This document shows, piece by piece, positions 448 to 17,972 of a stretch of DNA of 17,972 nt. Position 1 is the stretch's first letter; each line of letters starts with the position of its first letter. The translations under genes and the position numbers were made by a program. The DNA comes from Dubosiella newyorkensis (GTDB taxonomy: Bacteria > Bacillota_I > Bacilli_A > Erysipelotrichales > Erysipelotrichaceae), in contig NZ_MPKA01000077.1 of NCBI RefSeq assembly GCF_001945605.1, positions 1-17,972 on the forward strand. The letters run 5' to 3'. The notes beneath the pieces are model-generated. The model was not told where the DNA came from. It saw nothing but the letters and a program-made list of their open reading frames with translations, and made no database searches.

Positions 448-669
448 ACATTTTTCCTCCTATTCGTATCGTAGTTTTCTTGAAGGAGAATGACAATGGT
501 TTTGCTTGTGAAGGCATTTTTGATAATTTCACTCATTTTGGAAACAGAATGGCAAATTCGATTTTTTTGGTGAATTTGAATTGCCATATTTGGTATAGAT
601 AAGGTGTGTAATTAAATTAGTATGATATCTGTTACGTTTTTATTGCTCCAAAAAAAATCGATTTTTTTG

Positions 670-683
670 TGAAAACGATTCCA
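670..683 (+). promoter_or_regulatory. cre-like site (CcpA operator-like) upstream of glgC
   Basis: TGAAAACGATTCCA compared with the cre consensus TGWAANCGNTNWCA has one mismatch (C at the W position). It lies ~40 nt upstream of the putative -10 of glgC. Confidence 0.35.
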
Positions 684-720
684 ATTTATGCGAAAAAGCA
701 TTTTTAAATCGCATAAAAGG

Positions 721-729
721 TGCTATAAT
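721..729 (+). promoter_or_regulatory. putative glgC promoter, extended -10 (TGcTATAAT)
   Basis: A perfect TATAAT at 724-729 is preceded by TGc, giving an extended -10. It lies 36 nt upstream of the glgC ATG. The -35 is weak (TTTTTA). An inverted repeat TTATGCGA-N15-TCGCATAA (686-716) lies just upstream. Confidence 0.45.
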
Positions 730-764
730 TTTAACAGCTTTAATAGATGAATAGGAGGATAATT

Positions 765-1904: not shown

Positions 1905-1916
1905 AGGTGAGTCAGT

Positions 1917-4474: not shown

Positions 4475-4896
4475 CCATGAAAGTCGGGATGAGCGCTTGT
4501 TTAGCAGGAGTCAATTGTAAATACAATGGCAAGAACAACTATGATTCGGATTTGATGGAACGCTTTAAAAATGACGAGATCATATTGATCTGTCCTGAAA
4601 TGGAGGGCGGCCTTCCTTGTCCAAGGATCCCTTGCGAGATCAAAGAGGGAAGAGTGATCGACGCCAATGGGCAAGATCATACGCAGGCCTTTGAAGAGGG
4701 AGCTCTGCATGCTCTTGATCGGATCAAAGATTGTGATCTTCTTGTTTTGCAGCCCCGTTCTCCAAGCTGCGGCGTTCATGAGATCTATGATGGAAGCTTT
4801 ACAAATAAGCGCGTTCCTGGCTCTGGAATCTTTGCGCAAAAGGCGAAAAAGTTGAAAATTCCATTAATGGAAGCGTCTACAAAAAAGACGATTTAG
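4471..4896 (+). CDS. DUF523 family protein (TudS / 2-thiouracil desulfurase-like, Cys-rich)
   Basis: 141 aa. The N-terminal GMSACLAGVNCKYNG matches the DUF523 signature (SACLLG...RYDG). Further conserved-looking Cys residues occur (CPE..GGLP.PR, SPSCG). The ATG overlaps the glgA stop (ATGA); an alternative start is ATG 4477. Confidence 0.75.
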   Translation: MTMKVGMSACLAGVNCKYNGKNNYDSDLMERFKNDEIILICPEMEGGLPCPRIPCEIKEGRVIDANGQDHTQAFEEGALHALDRIKDCDLLVLQPRSPSCGVHEIYDGSFTNKRVPGSGIFAQKAKKLKIPLMEASTKKTI

Positions 4897-4898
4897 TA

Positions 4899-4927
4899 TT
4901 GTCTTATCAAATAAAATGGCATAAAAT
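4899..4927 (+). promoter_or_regulatory. putative ptsH promoter (TTGTCT-17nt-TAAAAT)
   Basis: -35 TTGTCT at 4899-4904, exactly 17 nt of spacer, -10 TAAAAT at 4922-4927. It lies 30 nt upstream of the ptsH ATG, with AGGAGG at 4941-4946. Confidence 0.45.
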
Positions 4928-4956
4928 AAATTTAGATTTTAGGAGGAAAACATAAA

Positions 4957-5223
4957 ATGAAACAAGTAACTGTAACGGTCATCGATCCAGTAGGACTTCA
5001 TGCGCGTCCTGCAACTGTAGCTGTCAATGCAGCAAGCAAATATAAAAGCGATATTAATGTTGCATTCAAAGGCCGCGAAGTAAACATGAAATCGATCATG
5101 GGTGTAATGTCTTTAGGTATCCCAACACAATCTGAAATCACGATTAGCTGCACTGGTGAAGACGAAGACGCAGCCATCGCTGCAATTGAAGAAGTTCTTC
5201 GCGCCCAAAAGATCATCGCGTAA
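4957..5223 (+). CDS. ptsH: phosphocarrier protein HPr
   Basis: 88 aa containing the His15 site (GLHARPA) and the HprK-phosphorylated Ser46 context (KSIMGVMSLG). It has a strong RBS. Confidence 0.93.
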   Translation: MKQVTVTVIDPVGLHARPATVAVNAASKYKSDINVAFKGREVNMKSIMGVMSLGIPTQSEITISCTGEDEDAAIAAIEEVLRAQKIIA

Positions 5224-5242
5224 GAAAAAATTCAAAATCAAA

Positions 5243-5269
5243 AGTCTCGTTTTCTCGAGACTTTTTTTA
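5243..5269 (+). terminator. rho-independent terminator after ptsH
   Basis: AGTCTCG-ttttct-CGAGACT hairpin (5243-5262) followed by T7. Confidence 0.8.
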
Positions 5270-5300
5270 TCATTGAAAAAGAATAGAGGAGGAATTAAAA

Positions 5301-7007
5301 ATGTCGATTGTTGAAGAACGTTATGAAAAATGGGTCAATCATCCAAATCTTGATCCTCAATATCTTGAAGAGCTCAAAGGGATGAGTGAAGAAGAAAAGA
5401 ATGACGCGTTCTACACGCTCATTGAATTTGGAACGGCAGGAATGCGCGGATTATTAGGTCCTGGAACAAATCGGATCAACCTGCATACGATCCGCAAAGT
5501 GACGCAAGGCTATGCGAACTACATCAAAGCGCACGGGGAAAAAGCATGTGAAGAAGGGATCGCGATCGGTTATGACAATCGCCACATGTCTAGAGAGTTC
5601 GCGTTTGACTGCGCCAAGATCTTAGCGAAAAACGGAATCAATTCTTATGTTTTCGAATCGCTTCGTCCTACTCCTGAATTGTCTTTCGCTGTTCGTCATT
5701 TACACTGCTTTGGCGGGATCATGATCACGGCGAGCCACAATCCTAGAGAATATAATGGATATAAATTATACGATGATAAAGGATGCCAACTTGTCCCGGC
5801 TCTTGCGAGTCAAGTGATCGATCAAGTCAACGCGATCGAAGATGAGCTTGCGATCGATGCGACAGTCACGCCAGAAGAAGAAAAGCGGATCACGGTGATC
5901 GGTAAAGATGTCGATGAAGCGTATTATGAAAAAGTGCTCGGTATCCAATTGAATCCAGACGTTACAAAGGATATCAAGATCGTTTTCTCTCCAGAACACG
6001 GTACAGCCAACATTCCTGTTCGGACTGTTTATGAAAGAGCGGGTTACAACTGCATTCCTGTTGAAGAACAATGCACCCCAGATCCGGATTTCTCAAATAC
6101 GCCAACTCCAAACCCTGAACAAATCGGTGCCTATGAGCTCGCTTTGAAATACGCGAAAGATAACGATGCCGATATTATCTTAGTATGCGATCCAGACGCT
6201 GACCGGATGGGTGTTGGAGTGAAACACGATGGCGATTATGTGATCATGACAGGCAACCAATCGGGAGCGGTATTACTAGAGTATATTTTATCGCAAATGG
6301 AAGCGCATGGAATCATGCCAGAAAATCCTGTGATGTTCAATACAGTCGTAACGAGCGATCTTGGTGAAAAAGTCGCTTCTGCGCACGGAACAGAAACGGA
6401 AAAAACGCTGACAGGCTTCAAATTCATCGGTGAAAAAGTCGCAAAATATGAAAAGACAGGAGAAAAGAACTATGTATTCGGTTATGAAGAAAGCTATGGT
6501 TCTTTGATCAAACCTTTTGTCCGAGATAAAGACGCGCCACAAGCTTGCTTGATGTTGGCAGAAGCTGCCTCGTTCTACAAACAACAAGGCAAAGATCTCA
6601 TCGACGTATTGAACGATCTCTACGAACAACATGGAACGTATGAGGAAAGCCAAGTGGCATTGACTCTTTCTGGCGAAGCGGGAGCGAATCGGATCAAAGA
6701 GATCTTAGCGGATCTTAGAAAAGACGCGCCAAAAGAAATCGGCGGAACACCGGTGGTGCGTTTTGAAGATTATAAAGAGAGTGTCATCAAAGAAAATGGC
6801 GAAACAAAAGAGTTGACAGGCTTCACAAAATCGGATGTATTAAAATACTATCTGGAAGATGGAAGCTGGATCGCCGTACGTCCTAGCGGAACAGAGCCAA
6901 AATGCAAGTTCTACTACTGCATCAAAGGTGACAACGCGTTAGACGCCCATGAAAAAACGTTAAACTATCAAAAAGCGATGGCTGAATTGACTGGAACAAA
7001 CGAATAA
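5301..7007 (+). CDS. pgcA: phosphoglucomutase / phospho-sugar mutase (alpha-D-phosphohexomutase family, PgcA-like)
   Basis: 568 aa. It has the active-site loop TASHNPREYNGYK, the metal-binding DPDADR motif and the sugar-binding GYEESYG motif. The RBS is GAGGAGG. Confidence 0.9.
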   Translation: MSIVEERYEKWVNHPNLDPQYLEELKGMSEEEKNDAFYTLIEFGTAGMRGLLGPGTNRINLHTIRKVTQGYANYIKAHGEKACEEGIAIGYDNRHMSREFAFDCAKILAKNGINSYVFESLRPTPELSFAVRHLHCFGGIMITASHNPREYNGYKLYDDKGCQLVPALASQVIDQVNAIEDELAIDATVTPEEEKRITVIGKDVDEAYYEKVLGIQLNPDVTKDIKIVFSPEHGTANIPVRTVYERAGYNCIPVEEQCTPDPDFSNTPTPNPEQIGAYELALKYAKDNDADIILVCDPDADRMGVGVKHDGDYVIMTGNQSGAVLLEYILSQMEAHGIMPENPVMFNTVVTSDLGEKVASAHGTETEKTLTGFKFIGEKVAKYEKTGEKNYVFGYEESYGSLIKPFVRDKDAPQACLMLAEAASFYKQQGKDLIDVLNDLYEQHGTYEESQVALTLSGEAGANRIKEILADLRKDAPKEIGGTPVVRFEDYKESVIKENGETKELTGFTKSDVLKYYLEDGSWIAVRPSGTEPKCKFYYCIKGDNALDAHEKTLNYQKAMAELTGTNE

Positions 7008-7012
7008 TAGAG

Positions 7013-7038
7013 AAAACCTCGTTCTCGAGGTTTTTTTT
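7013..7038 (+). terminator. rho-independent terminator after pgcA
   Basis: AAAACCTCG-ttct-CGAGGTTTT hairpin followed by a T-run (T8 in total). Confidence 0.8.
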
Positions 7039-7041
7039 AAT

Positions 7042-7070
7042 TTGAAATAAAATTAAGATTGTTGTACAAT
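7042..7070 (+). promoter_or_regulatory. putative promoter TTGAAA-17nt-TACAAT of the VanZ-like gene (would give a leaderless mRNA)
   Basis: -35 TTGAAA at 7042-7047, 17 nt spacer, -10 TACAAT at 7065-7070. The ATG at 7078 lies 7 nt after the -10, and no Shine-Dalgarno lies in between. Confidence 0.5.
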
Positions 7071-7077
7071 TCGAAAC

Positions 7078-7620
7078 ATGAAAAAAACGAGTATTTTAAT
7101 GAGGATCCTTTTAGCGTTCTTATTTCTCGCTTTAAGTGGCATCATCGTTCTTGCCGCTTATACGCTCTCCGCCGAAGATGGAGCGACAACTTCGAACCGA
7201 AGCGAGGTCGTCACTGAAAATTTAAAACAAGAATTCAAAGACCGCTTGATGACAAGTCCGGAGGGAATCAGCTTATACGAAAGGATCAAAGGCTTAGTGA
7301 TCCGCTTTTCTCCATATGGAAGCAATTGGAATCAAAATGTCCGCAAGCTTGCGCACTTCTCCATCTATTTTGCGTTAGCCGCTATGGTCTATTTGACCCT
7401 TGCTATTTTAGGAATGAAGAAGTTTTCACGCTTGTTTTTAAGTTTATGCATCGCTTTAGCGCTTGCGATCTTTGATGAATGGCATCAAGGATCTGTAGCG
7501 GGACGAGTCATGTCTAAAAAAGATGTTTTGATCGATTTTTTAGGTGCCTGCACATCCACGGGAATTCTTACTGTGATTTCTATGATCAATTCGATGATCA
7601 AAAAAATTATCAATATCTAA
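7078..7620 (+). CDS. VanZ-like family membrane protein
   Basis: 180 aa. It has an N-terminal TM segment, then the RKLAHFSIYFALA...DEWHQ......GR....DVLIDFLGA pattern typical of the VanZ-like family, with multiple TM segments. Confidence 0.75.
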   Translation: MKKTSILMRILLAFLFLALSGIIVLAAYTLSAEDGATTSNRSEVVTENLKQEFKDRLMTSPEGISLYERIKGLVIRFSPYGSNWNQNVRKLAHFSIYFALAAMVYLTLAILGMKKFSRLFLSLCIALALAIFDEWHQGSVAGRVMSKKDVLIDFLGACTSTGILTVISMINSMIKKIINI

Positions 7621-7650
7621 GCGCAAGGGAAGTTCTTTGCGCTTTTTTTT
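7621..7650 (+). terminator. rho-independent terminator after the VanZ-like gene
   Basis: GCGCAAGGG-aagt-TCTTTGCGC hairpin (with G-U pairs) followed by T8. Confidence 0.75.
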
Positions 7651-7752
7651 GAAGCGGAAAAGATCAAGAGTAGCTCTATGCAGATATGTTGTAAAAACAT
7701 GGTAAGATTCAAGAAGAATCAAAAAGGATCATCATTGATTTGGAGGTTTAAA

Positions 7753-8562
7753 ATGAATACATATATTGATCAAATGTTTGGATTGAAAGGAAAAGTCGCG
7801 TTGATCACAGGAGCGACGCATGGTATTGGCTTTGGCATAGCTTGCGCTCTGGCAAAAGCCGGCGCGACGATCTGTTTCAATGGCCGCTATAAAGAAAAAA
7901 ACGAACAAGCTCTTCAAGCTTACGCGAAAGAAGGCATTCAGGCGCATGGTTATGTATGCGATGTAACCAACGAAAGTGAAGTTGCGGACATGATGAAAAA
8001 GATCGAAGCCGAAGTCGGCACGATCGATATTCTTGTCAACAATGCAGGAATCATTCAAAGAAAGCCAATGCTTGAAATGGATGTGGCCGATTTTCGCAAA
8101 GTTGTCGATGTCGATTTAACAGGGCCATTCATCATGGCAAAAGCGGTCTTACCAGCAATGATCGAAAAGAACGCGGGCAAAATCATCAATATTTGCTCTT
8201 TGATGTCTGAATTAGGACGGGAAACTGTAGTGGGATACGCGGCAGCTAAAGGCGGTCTGAAAATGCTGACCCGAAATATTTGCGCGGAATTTGGAGAATA
8301 CAATATCCAATGCAATGGGATCGGACCAGGTTATATCGCGACTAGCCAAACTGCACCATTGCGTGAAAAACAAGCGGATGGCTCGCCAAATCCATTCGAT
8401 GCTTTTATTTTAGCGAAAACGCCTGCCCATCGATGGGGCAAGCCAGAAGATCTAGAAGGACCTGCTGTTTTCCTCGCTTCTAGTGCATCGGATTTTGTGA
8501 ATGGCCAAATTCTATTTGTAGATGGCAGTATTTTGGCAAGTCTAGGCCGGACGCCGCAATAA
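7753..8562 (+). CDS. SDR-family oxidoreductase, gluconate 5-dehydrogenase / KduD / DhuD-like
   Basis: The track ORF starts at 7678, but GGAGG at 7743-7747 supports ATG 7753 (MNTYIDQMFGLKGKVALITGATHGIGFGIA). It has the TGxxxGIG cofactor motif, NNAG, and the catalytic S...YAAAK. Confidence 0.85.
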   Translation: MNTYIDQMFGLKGKVALITGATHGIGFGIACALAKAGATICFNGRYKEKNEQALQAYAKEGIQAHGYVCDVTNESEVADMMKKIEAEVGTIDILVNNAGIIQRKPMLEMDVADFRKVVDVDLTGPFIMAKAVLPAMIEKNAGKIINICSLMSELGRETVVGYAAAKGGLKMLTRNICAEFGEYNIQCNGIGPGYIATSQTAPLREKQADGSPNPFDAFILAKTPAHRWGKPEDLEGPAVFLASSASDFVNGQILFVDGSILASLGRTPQ

Positions 8563-8573
8563 AGGAGATGACT

Positions 8574-9230
8574 ATGAAAATCGCATTGATCATGGAGAAT
8601 TCTCAAGCGCAAAAAAACGCGAGCGTTGAGAATGCCTTAAAAAAAGCGGTGCTGCCTTACGGCTATGAGGTCGTTAATTATGGAATGTTTAACGAAAAAG
8701 ACGACCCGCTCACTTATGTACAAAATGGGATCCTCGCCGCGATCTTGCTTAACTCCAAAACAGCCGATTATGTCGTGACAGGTTGTGGTACTGGGGAAGG
8801 GGCGATGCTAGCCTGCAACGCGTTTCCAGGCGTGTTATGTGGACATATCGAAGATTCTTTGGATGCGTATACGTTTGCTCAGATCAACGATGGAAATGCC
8901 ATTTCTCTTCCGTTTGCGAAAGGTTTTGGCTGGGGAGGCGATCTGAATCTTGAATACATTTTTGAAAAGCTCTTTTGCGAGCCATCTGGTCAAGGGTATC
9001 CAAGAGAAAGAGCGATCCCGGAGCAGGGCAACAAAAAAATCCTCGATGAAGTGAAATCGATCACGTGCCGCGATCTCAAAAAGATCCTGCCAGAGCTCGA
9101 TCCGGAGCTTTTATCTGGTGTGATTGGAAGAAAATCGTTTCAGGAGCTGTTTTTCAGGAATTGCCCAGATCCTGAATATATTCAATTGATCTGCGAATTG
9201 ATCGGTCCTAAAAATAAGGAAGAGGCATGA
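8574..9230 (+). CDS. RpiB/LacA/LacB-family sugar(-phosphate) isomerase, long (~218 aa) DhuI-like form
   Basis: The track ORF starts at 8568. AAGGAG at 8562-8567 favours ATG 8574 (MKIALIMENSQ...). TGCGTGEGAMLACNAFPGV resembles the RpiB/LacAB CGTGIG core. It lies directly downstream of the SDR with an 11-nt gap. Confidence 0.75.
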   Translation: MKIALIMENSQAQKNASVENALKKAVLPYGYEVVNYGMFNEKDDPLTYVQNGILAAILLNSKTADYVVTGCGTGEGAMLACNAFPGVLCGHIEDSLDAYTFAQINDGNAISLPFAKGFGWGGDLNLEYIFEKLFCEPSGQGYPRERAIPEQGNKKILDEVKSITCRDLKKILPELDPELLSGVIGRKSFQELFFRNCPDPEYIQLICELIGPKNKEEA

Positions 9231-9245
9231 TGTCTCTTCCTTTTC
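9216..9245. terminator. bidirectional hairpin terminator between convergent genes
   Basis: AAGGAAGAG-gcatgatgt-CTCTTCCTT is flanked by A-rich sequence on the left and T-rich on the right. The stop codon of the isomerase gene lies in the loop, and the minus-strand aminotransferase gene ends at 9246. Confidence 0.6.
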
Positions 9246-10436
9246 TTAGGATCGATTTGAAGGATTTTCTTCTTGTTTTTGTTCAAGAGAGGCGAGGAAC
9301 GCCTCGATGCGGTCACATCCTTCAATGATATTATCCATCGAACAAGCGTAGGACATCCGCATAAAACCTTCGCCTTTTTCGCCAAAAGCGGTTCCTGGTA
9401 CGCAAGCCACGCGTTGCTCCTCGACGAGTCGATTACAAAATTCTTCGCTTGTTAGGCCCGTTTGCGAAATATTAGGGAAAACATAAAATGTGCCGTGGGG
9501 CATATTTGTTTTTAGTCCCATACGATTTAAACGAGAAACCAAGAGATTTCTTCGATTCATATACTCGTTGCGCATATGGGATACGTCGGAAAGTCCATCG
9601 GTCATCGCTTCTAAAGCGGCATATTGGGCGGGAGTAGGCGCGGACATGATGATATATTGATGGATCTTGGTCATCGCAGCGCTTAAATTCGGATTCGACA
9701 TGACATAACCTAAACGCCACCCTGTCATGGCGAACGCTTTCGAGAAACCGTTGATCACGACGATTTGATCGCGGATGCTTGGAAATTGCGCTAACGAAGC
9801 GAACTCTCCATCAAAGGTAAGTTCAGCATAGATCTCGTCCGATACGACATAGATCCCGCTTTCTTCAATGATCGGGACGAGCTTTTCATAATCTTCGTAT
9901 GTCATGACACCTCCAGTCGGGTTGCTTGGAAAGTTGATCAAGATTGCTTTTGTTTTATCCGTGATCGCGTTTTTCAAAGCTTCGGGAGTAAGCTTAAATT
10001 CACTCTTTTCTTCTAGGGGAATAATGACAGGGATTCCGCCTGCCATTTCGATCGCGGGCGTATAGGCAACATAATTTGGATCCATCGTGATCACTTCATC
10101 GCCTGGATTGATCATGGCCCGCATCGCTAGATCGATCGCTTCCGAACCGCCAACCGTAACCAAGATCTCGTTTTCAGGATTATAGTGCTGATCGTAACGG
10201 ATTCGATGGAATTCTGCGATCAGTTTTCTAAGTTCTAGAAGACCGCGGTTGGCTGTATAATGGGTCTTTCCTTCCGACATGGAATAGACGGCATTTTCAC
10301 AAATATGCCAAGGCGTGTCGAAGTCGGGTTCGCCTACACCAAAGGAGATGACGTTATCCATTGTGCTTGCGAGATCGAAGAACTTCCGGATACCGCTGGG
10401 CTTTAAATTCTCGATCGTTTTCGATAATGGCTTCAT
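9246..10436 (-). CDS. class I/II PLP-dependent aminotransferase (AlaT/YugH- or AspB-like)
   Basis: 396 aa. It has N-terminal SGIRKF...ISFGVGEPDFDTP, the PLP-lysine motif SKAFAMTGWRLGY, and a C-terminal RMSYA. The start overlaps the stop of the upstream Lrp/AsnC gene (TAATG), the same pairing as B. subtilis alaR-alaT (yugG-yugH). Confidence 0.88.
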   Translation of the reverse strand: MKPLSKTIENLKPSGIRKFFDLASTMDNVISFGVGEPDFDTPWHICENAVYSMSEGKTHYTANRGLLELRKLIAEFHRIRYDQHYNPENEILVTVGGSEAIDLAMRAMINPGDEVITMDPNYVAYTPAIEMAGGIPVIIPLEEKSEFKLTPEALKNAITDKTKAILINFPSNPTGGVMTYEDYEKLVPIIEESGIYVVSDEIYAELTFDGEFASLAQFPSIRDQIVVINGFSKAFAMTGWRLGYVMSNPNLSAAMTKIHQYIIMSAPTPAQYAALEAMTDGLSDVSHMRNEYMNRRNLLVSRLNRMGLKTNMPHGTFYVFPNISQTGLTSEEFCNRLVEEQRVACVPGTAFGEKGEGFMRMSYACSMDNIIEGCDRIEAFLASLEQKQEENPSNRS

Positions 10437-10930
10437 TATGGAGTCACCACCAATCGTGTGGATTCGACATCTTCTTCATCTTTCATGACGATTCCATTTT
10501 GCTTATATTGTTTAAGGACGAATAAAGTCTTGGTCGCTCTTACATCTTCTACGCATGCGATCTTGTCGGAGACGAAACGAGCGACTTCGAACATCGTTTT
10601 TCCTTGGACAAGGCAGAGAAAATCACAATCTCCCGATAGTAGATACATCGTATCGATTTCAGGATAATTGGCGATCTTCATCGCCGTCTTGTCGTAGCCT
10701 TTATGTCGTTGTGGCGTACAGTCGACTTCGATAAAAGCCATGACTTTTTCATTTTTTAACGCTTTATTGTAGTTGATCACCGTATGATAACCGCAGATGA
10801 TCTTCTCTTTTTCAAGCTGCTGGATCTCGGACTTGATCAACGCTTCATCTTCGTGAAGGATATCCGCGAGATCCTGCGTCGTTAAGCGAGCGTTGTTTTC
10901 GAGCAGCTCCAATAGAATATTCGTATTCAT
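10436..10930 (-). CDS. Lrp/AsnC-family transcriptional regulator (AlaR/YugG-like)
   Basis: 164 aa. It has an N-terminal winged HTH (LLELLENNARLTTQDLADIL) and a C-terminal RAM-like domain (AFIEVDC....Y........P.I...YLLSGDCDFL). The RBS AAGGAG lies upstream. Confidence 0.88.
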   Translation of the reverse strand: MNTNILLELLENNARLTTQDLADILHEDEALIKSEIQQLEKEKIICGYHTVINYNKALKNEKVMAFIEVDCTPQRHKGYDKTAMKIANYPEIDTMYLLSGDCDFLCLVQGKTMFEVARFVSDKIACVEDVRATKTLFVLKQYKQNGIVMKDEEDVESTRLVVTP

Positions 10931-10965
10931 AATCTCTCCTTATATCATCCGTTAGGGTATATGTA

Positions 10966-10994
10966 ATTTTGACACTTTTTGTAAAGAATGTCAA
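10966..10994 (-). promoter_or_regulatory. putative promoter of the Lrp/AsnC-aminotransferase operon (TTGACA-17nt-CAAAAT on minus strand)
   Basis: The complement of 10989-10994 is TTGACA, followed by a 17-nt spacer, and the complement of 10966-10971 is CAAAAT. It overlaps the 7-bp inverted repeat CTTTTTG-N10-CAAAAAG (10975-10998). Confidence 0.4.
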
Positions 10995-11039
10995 AAAGCA
11001 TTCATATGAGTGTAAGCCTTTACAAATTCGTGCAGTACA

Positions 11040-11068
11040 TTGACTTTTCAGTTGGCTAATTTTATAAT
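11040..11068 (+). promoter_or_regulatory. gap promoter, near-consensus sigma-A (TTGACT-17nt-TATAAT)
   Basis: -35 TTGACT at 11040-11045, exactly 17 nt of spacer, -10 TATAAT at 11063-11068. The RBS AAAGGAGG lies at ~11084-11091. Confidence 0.7.
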
Positions 11069-11101
11069 ATTGATGAAATTTAAAAGGAGGATTTACTGAA
11101 A

Positions 11102-12118
11102 ATGACAGTAAAAGTTGCAATTAACGGTTTTGGACGTATCGGACGCTTGGCATTCCGTCAAATGTTTGACGATCCTAACTATGAAGTAGTAGCGATCAAC
11201 GACTTGACTAGCCCTGATATGTTAGCTCATTTGTTAAAGTACGACTCGACACAAGGTACTTACAAATTGGCTGATAAAGTAGAAGCTGGTGAAGATTCTA
11301 TCACAGTTGATGGAAAGAAGATCACGATCTACAAAGAAGCAGACGCTAGCAAATTGCCTTGGAAAGATCTTGGTGTAGACGTTGTTCTTGAATGTACAGG
11401 TTTCTATACTTCAAAAGCAAAAGCACAAGCTCATATCGATGCAGGTGCTCGTAAAGTCGTTATTTCCGCACCAGCTGGTAACGATCTTCCAACTGTAGTT
11501 TACAATGTTAACGAAAAAATCTTGAAACCATCGGATACAGTAATTTCTGCCGCAAGCTGCACGACAAACTGCTTAGCTCCTATGGCGAAAGCTTTGAACG
11601 ATCTTGCCCCAATCAAAGGTGGAATCATGACTACAGTTCATGCTTACACAGGCGATCAAATGACATTGGATGGACCTCAAAGAAAAGGTGACAAACGTCG
11701 TAGCCGCGCTGCTGCTGTCAACATCGTTCCTAACTCTACAGGTGCTGCTAAAGCCATCGGTTTGGTAATTCCTGAATTGAACGGTAAATTGATCGGATCG
11801 GCACAACGTGTTCCTGTTCCTACAGGTTCTACAACTCTTCTAGTTGCTGAAGTTGAAGGTGAAGTGACAGTGGATCAAGTAAACGCTGCTATGGCTGCTG
11901 CTCAAACTGAATCTTTCGGATATAACACGGAAGAAATCGTATCTAGCGATGTAATCGGTATGAAATACGGTTCATTGTTCGATGCTACACAAACAATGTG
12001 CACACCTACTGGCGATGGAAATACATTAGTTCAAGTTGTTTCTTGGTATGACAACGAAAACTCTTACACTAGCCAAATGGTTCGTACAATTAAATACTTC
12101 TCTGAATTAGGCGACTAA
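11102..12118 (+). CDS. gap: type I glyceraldehyde-3-phosphate dehydrogenase
   Basis: 338 aa. It has N-terminal INGFGRIGR, the active site SCTTNCLAP, and C-terminal WYDNE. Codon usage looks strongly biased towards a highly expressed gene. Confidence 0.96.
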
Positions 12119-12140
12119 TCGTATAGGATAAAGTATGATC

Positions 12141-12169
12141 AAGACACTCTGCATAGAGTGTCTTTTTTT
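12141..12169 (+). terminator. rho-independent terminator after gap
   Basis: AAGACACTCT-gcat-AGAGTGTCTT 10-bp perfect stem followed by a T-run. Confidence 0.85.
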
Positions 12170-12176
12170 ATCGTTC

Positions 12177-12205
12177 TTGAAAATCTGTATCCTTTCGAGT
12201 ATCCT
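12177..12205 (+). promoter_or_regulatory. putative promoter (TTGAAA-17nt-TATCCT) for the small ORF and cysS operon
   Basis: -35 TTGAAA at 12177-12182, 17-nt spacer, -10 TATCCT at 12200-12205. It lies between the gap terminator and the AGGAGG at 12214-12219. Confidence 0.35.
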
Positions 12206-12224
12206 TAAGGAATAGGAGGTTTTT

Positions 12225-12389
12225 ATGCCTGTTAAAGTACGACTCACGAATGAAGAAAAAGACGAGACGACAAAAGATGTCGACGATCTTGATCTTGTCT
12301 ATCTTGAAAAAATGAAAGAAAGCGGCATCGATGAAGAGCTGCTCGATCAATTTAAAGAATTGAGCATTGAGCTAAACCAGCAACGATAA
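12225..12389 (+). CDS. candidate 54-aa acidic small protein / leader ORF upstream of cysS (below the ORF-track cutoff)
   Basis: ATG 12225 is preceded by AGGAGG (12214-12219, 5-nt spacing). It encodes MPVKVRLTNEEKDETTKDVDDLDLVYLEKMKESGIDEELLDQFKELSIELNQQR, with TAA at 12387-12389. It shares a strand with the downstream operon. The track shows only an antisense 60-aa ORF here, which has no RBS. Confidence 0.45.
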   Translation: MPVKVRLTNEEKDETTKDVDDLDLVYLEKMKESGIDEELLDQFKELSIELNQQR

Positions 12390-12394
12390 TCAAC

Positions 12395-12418
12395 GCATAG
12401 GATGACTATGCTTTTTTT
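12395..12418 (+). terminator. weak intrinsic terminator / attenuator hairpin immediately upstream of cysS
   Basis: GCATAG-gatga-CTATGC (6-bp stem) followed by T7 (12412-12418). It starts 5 nt after the small-ORF stop and ends 16 nt before the cysS ATG. Confidence 0.45.
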
Positions 12419-12434
12419 CTAGGAAGGAAATACT

Positions 12435-13772
12435 ATGAAATTATATAACAGCTATACACAAACGATCGAAGAGCTAAAGCCGATCGAAGAAGGGAAAGTG
12501 TCGATGTATGTTTGCGGACCAACCGTATACAACTATCCGCATATAGGTAATGTTCGGCCGATCATCGTCTTCGATACGTTAAAAAAGACGCTTGAGGCCC
12601 AAGGGATGGACGTTCTCTACGCTTCCAATTATACAGATGTCGATGATAAGATCATCAATACGGCAATCGAAAAAGGCGTCAGCGAGCAAGAAATCACGAC
12701 TCAGTTTATCGAAGCGTATGATCAAACACGCGCTGATCTGAATGCCGATCAACCTGATGTCGCTCCAAAAGTCACCGAAACGATGGATGCGATCATTCGA
12801 TTTATCGATCAGCTTATTCAAAAAGGTGCCGCTTACCAAGTCGATGGCGATGTATATTATCGTGTCGATTCCAACAGCCTCTATGGCGAGCTATCCCATC
12901 AAAAGGTGGAAGATCTAATGGTAGGCGCCCGCATTGATGAGAATACCAAAAAAGAAAATCCGCTTGATTTTACATTATGGAAAGAAACGGATCGTGGTAT
13001 TCAATGGGATTCTCCATGGTCGAAAGGGCGTCCAGGATGGCATACAGAATGTGTGGTTATGATCAATGACGTCTTCCAAAAGCCTCTGATCGATATTCAT
13101 GGTGGTGGACTGGATCTAAAGTTCCCGCATCATGAAAACGAGATCGCTCAATGCGAATCGCTGCATCATACACATCTTGCCAATATATGGGTACATAATG
13201 GCATGATCAATATCGATGGGATCAAAATGTCAAAATCTTTGGGGAATGTTTGGTGGGCCAAGGATCTGATCGCGATGTATGGGGAAAACGTGATTCGCTG
13301 GGTCATGATTTCCGCGCATTATCGGGCTCCACTCAACCTTAACGAAAAGGCGTTTGAAAGTGCTCAAAAAGAATTAGCCAAGATCGAAAACGCGTACCGG
13401 CAAGGACAAGTCAAAGTGCAGATCGCAAATGAGGAAGAAGAACCCAAAGAGCTAGATCAAACGCTTTGGAATCCATTTATCGAAGCGTTGAACGACGATC
13501 TCAACACACCAAACGCGATCACGGCGCTTTTAGAATGTGTCAAGAAGATCAACCAGCTTCAAAGGCAAAAAGAAATCGATGTTAAAGCGCTCAACGACGC
13601 TTTATTCACGCTTGAAAAGATGCTCACTGTATTAGGAATCAAATTACCGACGATCCACTTGAGTCAAGAAGATAAAGAACTATATCGTTCATGGCGAAAC
13701 GCAGTCCAAGAGAAAGATTTTGAACACGCGGATCTATATCGGGCGCGTTTACAAGAGCAAGGGATCCTCTAA
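12435..13772 (+). CDS. cysS: cysteine--tRNA ligase
   Basis: 445 aa. It has the class I HIGH motif (YPHIGNVRP), the KMSKS motif (KMSKSLGN), and the WHTEC zinc/cysteine-binding motif. Confidence 0.96.
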   Translation: MKLYNSYTQTIEELKPIEEGKVSMYVCGPTVYNYPHIGNVRPIIVFDTLKKTLEAQGMDVLYASNYTDVDDKIINTAIEKGVSEQEITTQFIEAYDQTRADLNADQPDVAPKVTETMDAIIRFIDQLIQKGAAYQVDGDVYYRVDSNSLYGELSHQKVEDLMVGARIDENTKKENPLDFTLWKETDRGIQWDSPWSKGRPGWHTECVVMINDVFQKPLIDIHGGGLDLKFPHHENEIAQCESLHHTHLANIWVHNGMINIDGIKMSKSLGNVWWAKDLIAMYGENVIRWVMISAHYRAPLNLNEKAFESAQKELAKIENAYRQGQVKVQIANEEEEPKELDQTLWNPFIEALNDDLNTPNAITALLECVKKINQLQRQKEIDVKALNDALFTLEKMLTVLGIKLPTIHLSQEDKELYRSWRNAVQEKDFEHADLYRARLQEQGIL

Positions 13773-14161
13773 TGGAAATCGTCACCCAAAACGCGACCTC
13801 CTTAGCCTGGATCGGCGATGGTTATATGACACTAGAAATACGAAAACATCTGCTGTCTCTTGGCTACACGAAAGCGGATATCCTTCAAAAGAAGAGCGCC
13901 AAGATCAATAGTGCCAAGGGACAATCCAAGATCTTGGAAGTTTTGGAATCGGAACATTTTTTTAATGAAGACGAAAAGCAGATCTTGCAGCGAGGAAGAA
14001 ACGCGTCGATTCATTCGAAAGCGAAAAACGCGGATGGAAAAACGTATTTACGGTCTACTTCGCTCGAAGCTTTGATTGGTTATTTGTATTTATACGATCA
14101 CCATGAGCGACTGAACGAACTCATGGAAAAGATCATCCAAGAAGGAGATAAGCTATGTTAG
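13772..14161 (+). CDS. mrnC: Mini-ribonuclease 3 (Mini-III)
   Basis: 129 aa. LAWIGDGYMTLEIRKHL is an RNase III-like signature. It has the size and position (directly after cysS, TAATG overlap) of B. subtilis yazC/mrnC. Confidence 0.87.
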   Translation: MEIVTQNATSLAWIGDGYMTLEIRKHLLSLGYTKADILQKKSAKINSAKGQSKILEVLESEHFFNEDEKQILQRGRNASIHSKAKNADGKTYLRSTSLEALIGYLYLYDHHERLNELMEKIIQEGDKLC

Positions 14162-14877
14162 TCTATGGCAAAAATGTATTCAATCAAATCCAAAACGATC
14201 CTTCCTCGATCCAGGAAGTGTTTATTCTACAAAATTTAAAGGATCAGAAGATCCAAAAAGCCGTTCAGGCGCTATCCTGCAAAAAACAAGTCGTTTCTAG
14301 AAAAAAACTCGATGAATTAACGGAGAACGCATCGCATCAAGGAATTGTGGCGAAAGTCAAAGATATACCCACCTATTCTCTTGAAGAACTTTTGAAAAAG
14401 AAAAAAGGGAATAAGCCTGGATTGTATGTCGCATTGGATGGGATCCAAGATCCTCACAATCTTGGTTCGATCTTGCGAAGCGCAGACTGTACAGGCGTGG
14501 ATGGTGTGATCATCACCAAACATAACAGCGTAGGACTTACTCCAGCTGCCATAAAGGCGAGCACAGGGGCTGCTTATACGATTCCTGTCGCAGTCGTGAG
14601 CAACTTGTCGCAAGCATTGAAGAAAATGAAAGAAGAAGGCTATTGGGTCGCTGGTGCGGATATGGATCATGCTCGCGATTATCGGCAAGGCATGTACGAG
14701 GAGCCAACAGTGCTCGTGATCGGTTCGGAAGGCAAGGGGATCTCGCCTCTTGTTAAAAAGCAATGCGATTATATGGTCAAGCTGCCGATGCTTGGCGAGA
14801 TCTCTTCGCTCAACGCTTCCGTCGCTTGCGCGATTCTTCTTTATGAAATCTTGAATAAACGCGAGCCTCTGCAATAA
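14155..14877 (+). CDS. rlmB: 23S rRNA (guanosine-2'-O)-methyltransferase RlmB (SpoU/TrmH family)
   Basis: 240 aa. It has an N-terminal L30e-like substrate-binding domain (YGKN...) and SPOUT motifs (DGIQDPHNLGSILRSA, VIGSEGKGIS, LNASVA). Its position matches B. subtilis yacO. It overlaps the mrnC end by 7 nt. Confidence 0.88.
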   Translation: MLVYGKNVFNQIQNDPSSIQEVFILQNLKDQKIQKAVQALSCKKQVVSRKKLDELTENASHQGIVAKVKDIPTYSLEELLKKKKGNKPGLYVALDGIQDPHNLGSILRSADCTGVDGVIITKHNSVGLTPAAIKASTGAAYTIPVAVVSNLSQALKKMKEEGYWVAGADMDHARDYRQGMYEEPTVLVIGSEGKGISPLVKKQCDYMVKLPMLGEISSLNASVACAILLYEILNKREPLQ

Positions 14878-14883
14878 TGGCCT

Positions 14884-15474
14884 ATGGAACAAGAAAATAT
14901 TTATGAGCTCATCTATCTTTATTTTTTGAAAGATGATGAAGCGATCGCTCGTTTGATCGAGTATTATCGGCCACTCGTCTATCGGCTCTTAAAAGAAAAA
15001 AGATCATTTTCTAGAACGCAGGATGGATGGTTCGAAGATCGTTTGGCGTTGGCGGATACGGTGCTGCTCGATTGTTTAGAATCGTATCGTCCTTATCAGA
15101 ATATTCCTTTTACCGTTTATTATAAGAGCGCCCTGCAAAATAAATTGATTGATGAAGGAAAGTATGAACAGCGGCATTCGCTCAACTATCATTTTGATGT
15201 GGTTTCCCTTGATCGAAAAGTCAAAGAAGATGGTGTGACCCAATATGTCGATCTGATCGCCGATCCACAAGCAGAGCATGCGAAAAACACATTGATCAAA
15301 GACTGGATCGATTCTTTGCAGGAACAAAAGCTCTTTTCTGCAGAAGATCTCGAAGTGATCAAGCTCAAGGCGGAAGGGTATAAGCAATCCGAAATCAGTC
15401 GCATGACAGGAAAATCCCGTAAATATATCCGGAAAGTGCTCGATCAATTCAAAAATTGGTATCTTAACAATTGA
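14884..15474 (+). CDS. sigH: sigma-70 family alternative sigma factor, SigH/ComX-like by size and synteny
   Basis: 196 aa. It has a region-2-like segment (YRPLVYRLL..., FTVYYKSALQNKLID) and a C-terminal region-4 HTH (LSAEDLEVIKLKAEGYKQSEISRMTGKSRKYIRKVL). The order cysS-mrnC-rlmB-(yacP)-sigH is conserved in Bacilli. There is no obvious Shine-Dalgarno, and the start lies 6 nt after the rlmB stop. Confidence 0.65.
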   Translation: MEQENIYELIYLYFLKDDEAIARLIEYYRPLVYRLLKEKRSFSRTQDGWFEDRLALADTVLLDCLESYRPYQNIPFTVYYKSALQNKLIDEGKYEQRHSLNYHFDVVSLDRKVKEDGVTQYVDLIADPQAEHAKNTLIKDWIDSLQEQKLFSAEDLEVIKLKAEGYKQSEISRMTGKSRKYIRKVLDQFKNWYLNN

Positions 15475-15520
15475 TAGAAGATAAGAGGATATCGATCTGG
15501 ATTCAAGAGATGATTTACAA

Positions 15521-15566
15521 AAAGAGTGCTAAGGAAACGGTGTAAACCGGTATCTTAGCACTCTTT
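15521..15566. terminator. bidirectional terminator between the sigH-like gene and the convergent regulator gene
   Basis: A 13-bp perfect stem AAAGAGTGCTAAG ... CTTAGCACTCTTT contains an inner CGG/CCG sub-stem. T-rich tracts lie on both strands' downstream sides. Confidence 0.7.
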
Positions 15567-15624
15567 TATTTTTCTTATAATAGAATAATTATGAAGCGAT
15601 AGCGAATAAGACTTGTGCATTTCT

Positions 15625-16929
15625 TCAGTGAAAGGCATTATTTAATTTTAAATACTGGATCAGTTTCTCTTGTAAAACAATGACCTGCTCCAAATCATTT
15701 TGTTGTCGATAGTAATCGATCAGCAAGCTGTAAAATGGAATTTCCAGCTCTATCGCTCTGTAAAAAGGCAGCAAAGATGTAATTTGAAATTCCAGATCGA
15801 ATACGTCCAGTTCCTGATTCAACACTTTGATCATCAGCTGCATGAACAGTTTGATCGGTAGGGCACGATCCTCTTTCCTCTCCTGGTCAATGAATTCCTG
15901 CGCAAAGTTTTTGCATTGATCAAATCGTTTCAATCGATAGCTGGAAAAAACCAATACGATATAAATATCCGGAAAAGAACTGCCAAGCTCTCTGGATCTC
16001 ATGGCATATTCAAGCGCCTGTTCATCTTTTTCCTGAATGAACAGGCACCAGGAAAAATTATCGTAAAGAGATGTTAAGATTTGATGATCGATGACCTGCT
16101 CTTTATTTACTGATAAATTTGTAAAAATCTCGATCGCTTTCGAATAGATCCTGAGTTTTCGATATAGTATCCCTTCGTTCATTTGTACCGTTAAGATTCG
16201 TCGATATGCGCCCGCTTGTTGAAGATGCTCTTTGCAGTTTTTTACAAGTTCAAGTGCCTGCATCGGTTTATTTAAATCATCAAGTCGGTACATTAAATGG
16301 TATTCGATCAAACCAATCAGTCCATGATGATCGATCTGCCGCGCACAGCGAAGCGCTTTTTGAAGATATTGAATTTGAGATCCGATCACATCAAGATCTA
16401 TCGCATCCTCTATGATCCCGCACAGATCATAGAGGATCGATACGTAGTATTCACTTACAAAATATTGTGAATCAATAATTTTTTTGATATCTTCTGCTGT
16501 TCCTGTATTTTGGAAAAGATCATAAAACGATTCCACGATTTTATAATGAAAATACGCAAAAGAATGCTTATTATTTTCCTGATCGAGATAAATTTTAATT
16601 TCATCCAGCTTTTTAAAATAGGAAAGATGGATAAAATCTTGTACGCAGCGATCGATCCATTGTTCCGCTTCCTCTAATTGCGCAATTTTTCTATTGAATT
16701 TATAATCCGGATCATACTTCTCAAAATATTCAATCGCATGATTAAACAGATCCACATCCATATTCGCCTGTCCAGACTCCATTCTTGACAGTGAAGAATT
16801 GCTAACATGAAGAATTTTCGCCAGATCTTTCTGTGGGACTTCATAATATTTCCTCAATTCTTGAATATAAGCAGCATAAAAGCGATCTTTCCTATATTTT
16901 TCCTGATTTGTCTTTCTATAAATGGTCAT
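15625..16929 (-). CDS. XRE-type HTH plus helical-repeat (TPR-like) transcriptional regulator, RRNPP-family-like (NprR/PlcR/Rgg-type architecture)
   Basis: 434 aa. Residues ~20-70 (IQELRKYYEVPQKDLAKILHVSNSSLSRMESGQANMDVDLF) form a classic XRE/Cro HTH. The remaining ~360 aa are all-helical-looking, with repeated A/Y/L-patterned ~34-aa units (e.g. ALEYAMRSRELG, AIEIFTNL, YRAIELEIPFYSLLIDYY). The gene is more AT-rich than its neighbours, and no Shine-Dalgarno precedes the ATG. Confidence 0.72.
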   Translation of the reverse strand: MTIYRKTNQEKYRKDRFYAAYIQELRKYYEVPQKDLAKILHVSNSSLSRMESGQANMDVDLFNHAIEYFEKYDPDYKFNRKIAQLEEAEQWIDRCVQDFIHLSYFKKLDEIKIYLDQENNKHSFAYFHYKIVESFYDLFQNTGTAEDIKKIIDSQYFVSEYYVSILYDLCGIIEDAIDLDVIGSQIQYLQKALRCARQIDHHGLIGLIEYHLMYRLDDLNKPMQALELVKNCKEHLQQAGAYRRILTVQMNEGILYRKLRIYSKAIEIFTNLSVNKEQVIDHQILTSLYDNFSWCLFIQEKDEQALEYAMRSRELGSSFPDIYIVLVFSSYRLKRFDQCKNFAQEFIDQERKEDRALPIKLFMQLMIKVLNQELDVFDLEFQITSLLPFYRAIELEIPFYSLLIDYYRQQNDLEQVIVLQEKLIQYLKLNNAFH

Positions 16930-17021
16930 ATTTTATTTTTAGAATTTCGCAAAAAAACGATTCCCTTTCTTTTTAATAAATTTTATCATGAATATAACAA
17001 AGAAAGAAGGAAACAGGTTTT

Positions 17022-17165
17022 ATGAAAAGGAACTATATTAAATTCATTATGATGGTATGCGTCGGAGGTGTTCTTCTCTTGCCTGAGTATTGCCCTGAAC
17101 ACCATAAGGTTGATGATTGCTGGAAAACAAGCTTACCTTACGGCGATAATAAAGGGCATAAATAG
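17022..17165 (+). CDS. candidate 47-aa secreted pre-peptide (possible cognate signalling pro-peptide; below the ORF-track cutoff)
   Basis: ATG 17022..TAG 17165 encodes MKRNYIKFIMMVCVGGVLLLPEYCPEHHKVDDCWKTSLPYGDNKGHK. It has a basic N-terminus and hydrophobic core (signal-peptide-like) followed by a polar 26-aa tail with two Cys. AAGGA at 17007-17011 lies 10 nt upstream. It is divergent from the regulator (92-nt intergenic region) and 35 nt upstream of the next same-strand ORF. Confidence 0.45.
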   Translation: MKRNYIKFIMMVCVGGVLLLPEYCPEHHKVDDCWKTSLPYGDNKGHK

Positions 17166-17200
17166 TAAGGTTGTAAAAGATAGAAGGAGAATAATTCATT

Positions 17201-17890
17201 ATGGAAAAGTTTAAAATTAAAAATTTGTTCGTAAATATTTTTAGTATAATGGTGTGTCTATGCATGGGGATTTTATTAGTTACACCTGTTTCGGCTTCTG
17301 AAGAAAATATTCAGAATAGGAAAGAATCAAACCCAATCATTCTTGAGTTTAACAAGATTCAAGATAAAATAACCGAATCATTATCAATTGAAGGCAATCA
17401 TTATGTATATGATAAAAACTACATCAATCATTTATTTGATGAATTTGATATAAATACATTTAACGAAATCACAGGTAAAAAATATACATTAGAAAGCTTA
17501 AAATCAGATATTTACTATGCTTTAGATACATATATAATTTCTAATCAGATTTCCACATATGGAACTTATTACAATAGAAACGCAACAGAAGAAGGTTGGA
17601 ATTATTGGCGATGGTACATGAGTGAAGCTAAAACAAATGAAATGATTCAGTCTTTAACTAATATTAGTAATGGAGAATTAGGGACTTCGATTATTTTAGG
17701 TATAATTTCAGTACTTCCTGGAGCTGGAGTAATTGGATGGGCTGGGTTAACCGCAACTTTGAAAGCAGGATGGAATGGACTATATAGACAATCACTAATT
17801 AATGTTAACGGGCCAGGAGGAACCGTTACTGATATTAATAAATTTACTATATATATTGCCTTTAATAAGCCAAACAAAGTCGATCAATGA
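17201..17890 (+). CDS. hypothetical exported protein with a C-terminal glycine-zipper-like hydrophobic segment
   Basis: 229 aa. It has an N-terminal Sec signal (MEKFKIKNLFVNIFSIMVCLCMGILLVTPVSA|SEE). The mature part is N/Y/I-rich and aromatic-rich (GWNYWRWY). The C-terminal segment is TSIILGIISVLPGAGVIGWAGLTATLKAGW. The RBS GAAGGAG lies at 17183-17189. The gene is very AT-rich. I recognise no family. The last ~9 codons overlap a convergent transposase-like ORF, so the native C-terminus may be missing. Confidence 0.6.
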   Translation: MEKFKIKNLFVNIFSIMVCLCMGILLVTPVSASEENIQNRKESNPIILEFNKIQDKITESLSIEGNHYVYDKNYINHLFDEFDINTFNEITGKKYTLESLKSDIYYALDTYIISNQISTYGTYYNRNATEEGWNYWRWYMSEAKTNEMIQSLTNISNGELGTSIILGIISVLPGAGVIGWAGLTATLKAGWNGLYRQSLINVNGPGGTVTDINKFTIYIAFNKPNKVDQ

Positions 17891-17972
17891 CTTGGTACGG
17901 GCGCTGATTGACCCATTTTTCGAATTCTTTGACCCTCGCACTGATTTCCTGCTTTGTATGAATGAATACATT
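17862..17972 (-). CDS. C-terminal fragment of a transposase/integrase-like protein (enters from beyond the window end)
   Basis: Minus-strand reading from the window edge gives NVFIHTKQEISARVKEFEKWVNQRPYQVIDRLCLAY*, with the stop at 17864-17862. The ...W/L-x-N-x-RP-x-x-V/L... segment resembles the C-terminal region of DDE (IS30 / rve-type) transposases. G+C rises abruptly at about 17880. Only 36 codons are visible, so the call is weak. Confidence 0.3.
   Translation of the reverse strand, partial: NVFIHTKQEISARVKEFEKWVNQRPYQVIDRLCLAY

Follow-up and report, generated by a model that had tools for sequence, protein, structure and literature searches.

The window, the 17,972-nucleotide stretch of Dubosiella newyorkensis contig NZ_MPKA01000077.1 analysed here, carries near its right-hand end a gene for a regulator, with a small peptide gene divergent to it. 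On balance these probably form a new RRNPP-type regulator/pro-peptide module, in which an NprR/Rap-like receptor is paired with a putatively exported pre-peptide that would act as its signal, and the module looks like an undescribed branch of Gram-positive RRNPP cell-to-cell signalling. Three of the features by which RRNPP(A) systems are recognised are present: a sensor domain of the tetratricopeptide repeat (TPR) type by its predicted fold, a helix-turn-helix (HTH) at the N-terminus and a linked, adjacent small open reading frame (ORF). The regulator ORF (15625–16929, minus strand, 434 aa) is separated by 92 nt from the small ORF (17022–17165, plus strand, 47 aa), which is in turn separated by 35 nt from the ORF of an exported protein (17201–17890, plus strand, 229 aa). 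These three ORFs and both spacings, from which the original prediction of a peptide quorum-sensing cassette was built, match the ORF list exactly.

The regulator had been described as an XRE HTH joined to helical repeats with an RRNPP-like fold, and both parts of this description hold. Pfam places HTH_3 at residues 22–56 (E 1e-4) and a weak TPR_12 at residues 245–315. In the AlphaFold2 (AF2) model, which is all-helical with a predicted local distance difference test (pLDDT) score of 80.8, an XRE-type HTH at approximately residues 14–72 is followed by 19 helices, making approximately nine TPR-like repeats. When the model was searched against the PDB with Foldseek, apo NprR was first (E 8e-6) and NprR/NprX second (5dbk_A, 4gpk), with generic TPR proteins close behind and Rap and PlcR lower. 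Taken alone, this ranking is suggestive rather than discriminating.

Sequence profiles were also compared with the PDB, profile A7 consisting of the close family and its nearest outside relatives and A6 being a wider profile. With A7, NprR is matched at E 3.4e-8, with profile positions 88–430 aligned on NprR 13–361 (approximately 345 residues), and there are likewise single collinear alignments to Rap3T (E 3.1e-8), Rap105, and RapF. Other natural TPR proteins are matched by A7 mostly over short stretches of approximately 50–110 residues, up to approximately 210. With A6, NprR is matched at E 1.2e-26 and the Raps at 1e-18 to 1e-21; RapH is also among the proteins matched by these profiles. TPR/RRNPP matches were found over residues 80–434, and the profiles also match XRE-type HTH structures, including 9sf2, PezA, and SinR. 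By these alignments the regulator is a remote homolog of the nine-TPR NprR/Rap group ("clan B") and falls outside the NprR subfamily proper.

Close homologs of the regulator number 20 among 5.8 billion proteins, all of them from Erysipelotrichaceae or from mouse-gut samples, and the genomes matched are those of Dubosiella, Allobaculum, and "Firmicutes bacterium M10-2", all Erysipelotrichaceae. An exhaustive HMMER search places these proteins at the tip of a larger, unnamed family of 410–435 aa that aligns end to end; a threshold of E ≤ 1e-3 admits 619 representatives, and one of E ≤ 1e-10 admits 88. In the case of Erysipelotrichaceae bacterium OPF54 (BQKD01000001.1), a single 3.1-Mb contig has three identical partial matches (L009, L010, L011) to residues 293–428, in the C-terminal third of the regulator. 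The spacing between them is exactly 71,006 bp, so that a 71-kb segment may be repeated three times in tandem, unless this is an artefact of the assembly.

Locus L012 is a contig of GCA_041448535.1 (Dubosiella newyorkensis) that is base-for-base the same as window 9201–17972, such that the window position is the L012 position plus 9200. In the gene calls of L012, the regulator starts at Met50, removing half of the HTH. This public annotation of a 385 aa protein was rejected, residues 13–49 being conserved and carrying the first helices of the HTH.

The 47-codon ORF encodes a basic start, MKRNYIK (net charge +3), a 14-aa hydrophobic segment, FIMMVCVGGVLLLP, and a polar tail, EYCPEHHKVDDCWKTSLPYGDNKGHK, and is preceded by a Shine-Dalgarno-like GAAGGA at 17006–17011. 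A homologous small ORF is found divergent to regulators 31–60% identical to this one in at least 8 further Erysipelotrichaceae loci. These include another locus of D. newyorkensis (L002/L003, whose regulator is 50% identical), "Firmicutes bacterium M10-2" (L004, 60%, with two peptide copies), an Allobaculum metagenome-assembled genome (L008, 55%), L014 (54%), L013 (37%), L026-28 (59%), and a distant relative (L019, 31%), with the peptide gene divergent in each. Its length is 47 codons at all examined loci save L013 and L019, where it is 48. The proportion of non-synonymous differences (pN) is 0.15–0.30 in most pairs (0.41–0.49 with L013), against saturated synonymous differences (pS) of 0.5–0.9, giving a dN/dS of 0.04–0.43. 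The small ORF is not there by chance, because it is conserved across loci, and it is a genuine gene under purifying selection that is linked to the regulator. This agrees with the earlier suggestion of a divergent ORF with a signal-peptide-like N-terminus, and homologous regulators do have the small ORF beside them. The gene is uncalled in the L012 gene calls and is called in L001, L002, and M10-2.

The peptides share the motif LP-x-[YF]-C-x2-H-x-K-x-D-[DH]-[CY]-W, within which the LP, C24, H27, and DDCW, along with two Gly, are invariant in a six-sequence alignment; in L019 and protein P0028 the second Cys is replaced by Tyr. The n-region is basic (+2 to +4), and the h-region is 12–15 residues in most members and 19 in two. 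A hydrophobic run of 12–15 residues is of signal-peptide length and not of the length of a stable membrane anchor. The polar tail is 21–27 residues in eight of nine variants and 32 in L014, with 1–5 His. A profile search of the 5.8 billion proteins found only 10 clusters of the peptide, all from Erysipelotrichaceae, and at every peptide locus examined the regulator or a fragment of it is alongside. The peptide sequence has no family in Pfam or NCBIfam.

Other classes of small protein were considered and rejected. For a double-glycine leader, the GG is not invariant (WN in L014, GF in L013, GI in L019), the leader is hydrophobic and basic, and there is no linked C39 peptidase or ATP-binding cassette (ABC) exporter in most loci. 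For a lipoprotein signal, there is no lipobox ahead of the Cys. The reading as a small toxin or antitoxin is at odds with a TPR domain as large as 360 aa and with a hydrophobic stretch that is only 12–15 residues long.

The control region between the two genes (16930–17021) is 92 nt with 22% G+C, and its length is constant at 88–93 nt across loci. It is 66–74% identical between loci, compared with 37–47% at the third-codon positions of the regulator and 59–66% for whole-gene nucleotides. In an alignment of nine loci, the conserved blocks, in the direction of the regulator, are TTCCTTTCTTTGTTAT, ATGATAgAATTTA, AAAAGAAAGGGAAT, and TTTCGAAATTC. Within ATGATAgAATTTA there are overlapping -10-like hexamers, TATCAT on the plus strand (16984–16989) and TGaTAAAAT on the minus strand (16988–16980). 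Centred on these is an inverted repeat, CCTTTCTTT-N26-AAAGAAAG (16964–17006), each arm of which covers the expected (weak) -35 position of one of the divergent promoters; TTTCGAAATTC is located between this repeat and the start codon of the regulator. The inverted repeat is the sole match in the window, where 0 are expected (200 shuffles), and the same motif recurs between the divergent genes of the cassettes in L001, L004 (in both of its copies), L005, L012, and L029. The control region would be a symmetric divergent promoter pair, with the inverted repeat as the candidate operator for an HTH dimer or tetramer. There is no Rfam family in this region or anywhere in the window and the conserved intergenic DNA is therefore not a known RNA.

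In the proposed mechanism, the pre-peptide would be exported and then trimmed, and a fragment with the conserved core (YC-x2-H-x-K-x-DDCW) would build up outside the cell. This fragment would be re-imported to bind the concave face of the TPR domain, and the regulator would act at the inverted repeat spanning the back-to-back promoters, so that the peptide gene is switched on, as positive feedback, along with the downstream cargo. We infer the export, processing, re-import, binding, and direction of regulation, as well as the toxin/immunity role of the cargo considered below.

Several observations weigh against this interpretation. The fold match of the regulator to NprR is only marginally above those to LGN or OGT, and a single-sequence phmmer search of the PDB finds Rap3T only (E 0.002). 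NprR is matched neither by this search nor by the close-family profile A1 and surfaces only once relatives 17–36% identical join the profile; the NprR link comes from profiles with distant relatives, for which profile drift is possible. There is no obvious Shine-Dalgarno sequence before the regulator, and in the peptide sequences there is no canonical A-x-A (-3/-1) signal-peptidase site. The peptide gene is wanting beside the regulators of L005 and L007, is a decayed remnant in L006/L015, and is likewise not intact in the distant relatives L018 and L021; such orphan regulators could respond to peptides from paralogous cassettes. Finally, RRNPP pheromones typically are shorter than the conserved peptide core, which has approximately 13 residues with two Cys and a His, and they vary far more between paralogs, usually diverging together with their receptors.

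A more particular reading, which is doubtful, is that this is an undescribed RRNPP subfamily of gut Erysipelotrichaceae in which an NprR-like nine-TPR receptor is set over antagonism and biosynthetic cargo in place of dormancy. Its signal would be unusually long and contain Cys and His, being possibly disulfide-looped or metal-binding. With a core that hardly varies between paralogous cassettes or between genera, it would be a shared "public" signal that synchronises several weapon loci, and possibly several species, unlike the private, rapidly diverging pherotypes of Rap/Phr or AimR/AimP.

It is unlikely that the small protein is instead a cell-bound partner of the regulator, either as a membrane-tethered redox or metal sensor or through sequestration and release of the TPR regulator, in which case it would sense a private stimulus and not density. 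The invariance of Cys24, His27, and DDCW where the regulators are only 31–60% identical is unlike that of pheromones and typical of a structural or ligand-binding motif. The missing canonical signal-peptidase site also favours a cell-bound product, as does the near-identical peptide core that the several paralogous regulators in one genome would meet. However, the hydrophobic segment of 12–15 residues in most members is short for an anchor and typical of a Sec h-region, and the positive N-terminus predicts that the tail is outside, beyond the reach of a cytoplasmic regulator. The change of the second Cys to Tyr in L019 and P0028 means that a disulfide or metal site is not obligatory, and the receptor is homologous to NprR and Rap, which bind imported peptides.

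It is quite improbable that the 47-aa product is a secreted effector, antimicrobial or metal-binding, encoded by the first gene of an operon whose TPR regulator senses some other ligand or partner. Its gene does always head the cargo-side transcription unit, with peptide-modifying enzymes adjoining in some loci (radical S-adenosylmethionine (SAM) in L026, ThiF in L014), yet at most peptide loci neither a modifying enzyme nor an exporter or immunity gene is dedicated to the peptide, and L026 has its own separate Cys-rich precursor. TPR domains take many kinds of partner, but no gene other than that of the regulator is invariably next to the peptide, and the peptide tail is polar and roughly neutral and not amphipathic or cationic as in typical bacteriocins. 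That the three ORFs are simply juxtaposed, a spurious ORF having come to lie between the genes of a generic XRE/TPR regulator and of a hypothetical secreted protein in AT-rich, horizontally acquired DNA, which yields many short ORFs (several overlapping ones are listed here) and has its 229-aa gene found elsewhere without this regulator, is very improbable indeed, given a small ORF kept in sequence, length, and position at no fewer than 8 other loci with a dN/dS well below 1 and the conservation of the intergenic DNA and inverted repeat. Juxtaposition is refuted for the regulator–peptide pair and is partly true for the third gene, which is no obligate partner.

Of the claims originally made, that of the three genes as one fixed regulator-signal-output unit does not survive as stated, since only the regulator and peptide travel together and the cargo varies by locus. 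The peptide gene is always first in the cargo-side transcription unit. Behind it are the 229-aa protein in the window and in L001, the latter being a metagenome contig 98.8% identical, with the same island and without the insertion sequence (IS) described below; a frameshifted pseudogene of the 229-aa protein in L004, with a 135-aa secreted protein at the second copy in that locus; secreted or membrane proteins of 167 aa and 157 aa in L002; a secreted Peptidase_C92 amidase in L008; a 56-aa acidic peptide and a ThiF-family enzyme in L014; and a 712-aa radical-SAM enzyme, a 70-aa Cys-rich peptide, and ABC transporters in L026-28. The downstream cargo is interchangeable, and it is always a secreted or antagonism-type product.

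In three of these loci the arrangement can be described further. In L026 (4988–7630) an 85-aa protein and the 70-aa peptide, which has 15 Cys (MNSINACHTCDVSCGLNCNTGANACKGTCSIECNANCNNTNTGVCYNCANSCAATCAAKAGMMNISDLFS), come after the 712-aa radical-SAM protein, and ABC transporters flank these genes; together they are a candidate for an as yet uncharacterised cluster making a radical-SAM peptide, with the same module as its control. In L014 (3–1213) the 56-aa peptide is very acidic (MKQLNEKEINSENIKQNMINDDDVKNNQTFDKFEDLDDVDYKVEDIAFTYGEYRHM) and accompanies the ThiF-family adenylating enzyme (PF00899, E 7e-35), which looks like another modified-peptide cluster. In L004 (3286–5965, M10-2) the module is in tandem duplicate, with two identical peptide genes and one full and one truncated regulator; the locus also holds the frameshifted copy of the 229-aa gene and a gene for a protein with three transmembrane segments (3-TM).

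The native part of the 229-aa protein in the window is codons 1–216 (17201–17849, plus strand). Its signal peptide ends VSA|SEEN, and by hydropathy there is a Gly/Ala-rich hydrophobic segment at approximately residues 160–185. The description of this exported product as a glycine-zipper protein is loose, the glycines of that segment not having the canonical GxxxG spacing; the statement that it belongs to no recognised family agrees with the searches, in which neither it nor the 3-TM protein has a Pfam, NCBIfam, or PADLOC family. There are only 5 homolog clusters of the 229-aa protein, and the AF2 model of an IS-free homolog, P0022, was too poor for searching (pLDDT 51.5). Given the 35-nt gap, an AGGAG ribosome-binding site before the 229-aa gene, and no terminator-like site on the plus strand at 17000–17850, this gene is probably co-transcribed with the peptide gene.

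A 77%-identical 229-aa gene is located behind a BlaI/BlaR1-like pair, with no such TPR regulator nearby, and beside this copy, 8 nt on, there is an 83-aa homolog of the 3-TM protein (L023-25). In IS-free alleles, too, a small 3-TM protein comes after the 229-aa protein. The two thus form a portable pair, exported protein with small polytopic membrane protein, and one may reasonably guess at a role in toxin/immunity or bacteriocin/immunity. Also in L023 (334–696, 1058–8097) are a fragment of an ADP-ribosyl exotoxin (PF03496) and several more proteins that lack annotation, of which one or more begin with a signal-like N-terminus, and this cluster may be a secreted-effector island.

The window ends in an AT-rich island of approximately 3.5 kb at the 3' end of a sigH-like gene, to which an IS630 was added later. 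The G+C content is 0.338 in the island part (15489–17849), compared with 0.428 in bases 1–15474; the AT-richness had been noted from four hand counts of G+C per 60 nt, all of which are exact (10, 17, 26, 37). Before the island, Pfam and NCBIfam identify cysS and genes for a mini-RNase III, a SpoU-type methylase, and a sigma factor, the last presumably sigH from its Bacillus synteny; past the far end of the island come rpmG, secE, and nusG. In the 316-nt gap upstream of cysS (12119–12434), where T-box leaders are common in Firmicutes, there is a called 54-aa ORF (12225–12389), and there is no Rfam match at the gathering threshold.

A 44-nt direct repeat, with a 29-nt exact core (TTCAAAAATTGGTATCTTAACAATTGA), is present on either side of the island. 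The left copy (15445–15488, plus strand) is at the 3' end of the sigH-like gene (14884–15474), and the second is approximately 3 kb past the end of the window, immediately before rpmG; the two copies, at 6245–6288 and 10900–10943 of L012, are 84% identical. These att-like repeats are the real edges of the island and have the pattern left by site-specific integration. There is no integrase in the island. An empty site, in which the sigH 3' end would run straight into the rpmG-side flank, was not found in metagenome contigs, and a looser pattern matched only island-bearing contigs, one with an internal deletion; the evidence for mobility of the island is therefore its direct repeats and base composition.

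The original prediction had the block bounded by a terminator on the left and a transposase on the right. The terminator is real: between the sigH-like gene and the regulator there is a bidirectional intrinsic terminator (15520–15575) with 22-nt arms (15520–15541 and 15546–15567) that are 86% complementary, an A-run before and a T-run after, and the RNA fold of 15475–15624 is -40.7 kcal/mol (z = -4.54). The transposase is not a boundary, as it belongs to an IS inside the 229-aa gene, the edges being the 44-nt repeats. This IS starts at 17850, occupies the rest of the window (17850–17972, minus strand), and continues beyond it. Comparison of L012 with the IS-free L001, which departs after 17849, identifies a 1176-bp insertion with a 2-bp TA overlap as the target duplication. 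Its transposase, on the minus strand with the stop at 17862 and only its C-terminal end within the window, matches DDE_3 (E 5e-35) and HTH_23/28/29/33, and from the DDE_3 transposase, the N-terminal HTH, and the TA duplication the element is assigned to the IS630 family. The transposase is split into a 173-aa ORF with the HTH and a 162-aa ORF with DDE_3 (L012 8650–9825), a split that might reflect either a pseudogene with a frameshift or frameshifting that is programmed; the existing gene call has one 349-aa product with coordinates that are not a multiple of three.

Codons 217–229 of the 229-aa ORF (IYIAFNKPNKVDQ) and its stop (17850–17890) are therefore IS sequence. The IS-free alleles end SYYTVVRQTDFYV, and the conserved end of intact homologs is GTVTDINKFTSYYTVVRQTDFYV. 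With the conserved last 13 codons lost to the IS630, the output may be crippled, the regulator and peptide being intact. Approximately 2–3 kb to the right of the window, the island carries a gene for an 88-aa 3-TM protein and a decayed second copy (L012 10006–10272 and 10673–10879), which form a 174-nt direct repeat of 83% identity, and it also carries a terminator. In some metagenome variants of the same island (L030 1–860; proteins P0025, P0035), internal deletions either bring the beginning of the 229-aa gene into fusion with the 3-TM gene or break the peptide gene, and the cassette is therefore decaying in part of the population.

Dubosiella and other Erysipelotrichaceae are abundant commensals of the mouse and human gut and are of current probiotic interest. 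A full-text literature search for RRNPP with Erysipelotrichaceae returned no paper, and the literature on Dubosiella and quorum sensing has no paper on such a signalling system. RRNPP peptide quorum sensing has been worked out almost wholly in Bacilli (PMC9765709). Surveys like RRNPP_detector predict many new RRNPP subfamilies; in the portions of the text and supplements of that survey that were accessible, none of these taxa appear and the family is not included. The kind of system is known, and this family is most likely new within the RRNPP type. If the module works in the way proposed, it would open a route to the density-dependent control of the peptides and proteins that these bacteria secrete, the radical-SAM and ThiF peptide clusters among them, as well as provide a compact inducible regulator/operator pair, and it would place a nine-TPR receptor over biosynthetic or antagonism cargo, a role linked mainly to five-TPR receptors (PMC12700828). 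As the output gene is disrupted by the IS in the D. newyorkensis strain, the IS-free allele is the one for experiments.

Among known systems, NprR/NprX of the Bacillus cereus group belongs to clan B, the nine-TPR receptors (PMC12700828). The module shares with it an HTH and approximately nine TPR repeats in a receptor of similar size (434 aa here), the best structural match (5dbk/4gpk), a collinear profile alignment over the whole TPR domain, and a small adjacent pro-peptide gene of approximately 45 aa with an N-terminal export sequence (here predicted). There is no direct pairwise sequence match to NprR. The nprX gene is downstream of nprR in the same direction, whereas the peptide gene here is upstream and divergent, and its product is unrelated to NprX and has the conserved Cys/His motif. 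The host, being of the Erysipelotrichaceae, also differs, as does the cargo of secreted products in place of a protease/necrotrophy regulon. Nine-TPR receptors are mainly tied to dormancy control and not to biosynthetic clusters (PMC12700828).

At profile level the TPR domain is also homologous to that of Rap in the Rap/Phr systems (Bacillus, and Rap3T of phage phi3T), in which the signal is likewise an exported, processed, and re-imported peptide encoded beside its receptor. The phr genes, which read in the same direction as rap, overlap its 3' end, and mature Phr peptides are 5–6 residues. Rap proteins have no HTH and act on proteins rather than DNA (PMC9765709). PlcR/PapR of the Bacillus cereus group has an activator that resembles the regulator here in its XRE-HTH and TPR domains, and it resembles the module in a palindromic box between promoters (here a candidate) and in a Sec-exported pro-peptide (here predicted), and its structure 2qfc is at rank 47 of the fold matches. 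PlcR is approximately 285 aa, with papR downstream in the same direction, and the operator-like CCTTTCTTT-N26-AAAGAAAGG here has no known relation to the PlcR box. PlcR is, moreover, a five-TPR receptor (PMC12700828).

Like Rgg/SHP over the operons for radical-SAM ribosomally synthesised and post-translationally modified peptides in streptococci (streptide, tryglysin; PMC8092268, PMC13361665), the module has a divergent regulator and peptide gene upstream of a variable operon for secreted products. L026-28 has exactly this radical-SAM layout, with the 712-aa radical-SAM enzyme, the Cys-rich precursor, and the ABC transporters. Rgg proteins are approximately 280 aa, and SHPs are hydrophobic peptides of approximately 22 aa, exported by PptAB and cut by Eep. 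Here, in contrast, the receptor is 434 aa with approximately nine repeats and the 47 residues of the peptide include a polar tail of 26, and the regulator has no Rgg family match in NCBIfam or Pfam. Rgg receptors are of the five-TPR clan A (PMC12700828). The layout most resembles Rgg/SHP control of radical-SAM peptide operons, with an NprR-like receptor in place of Rgg.

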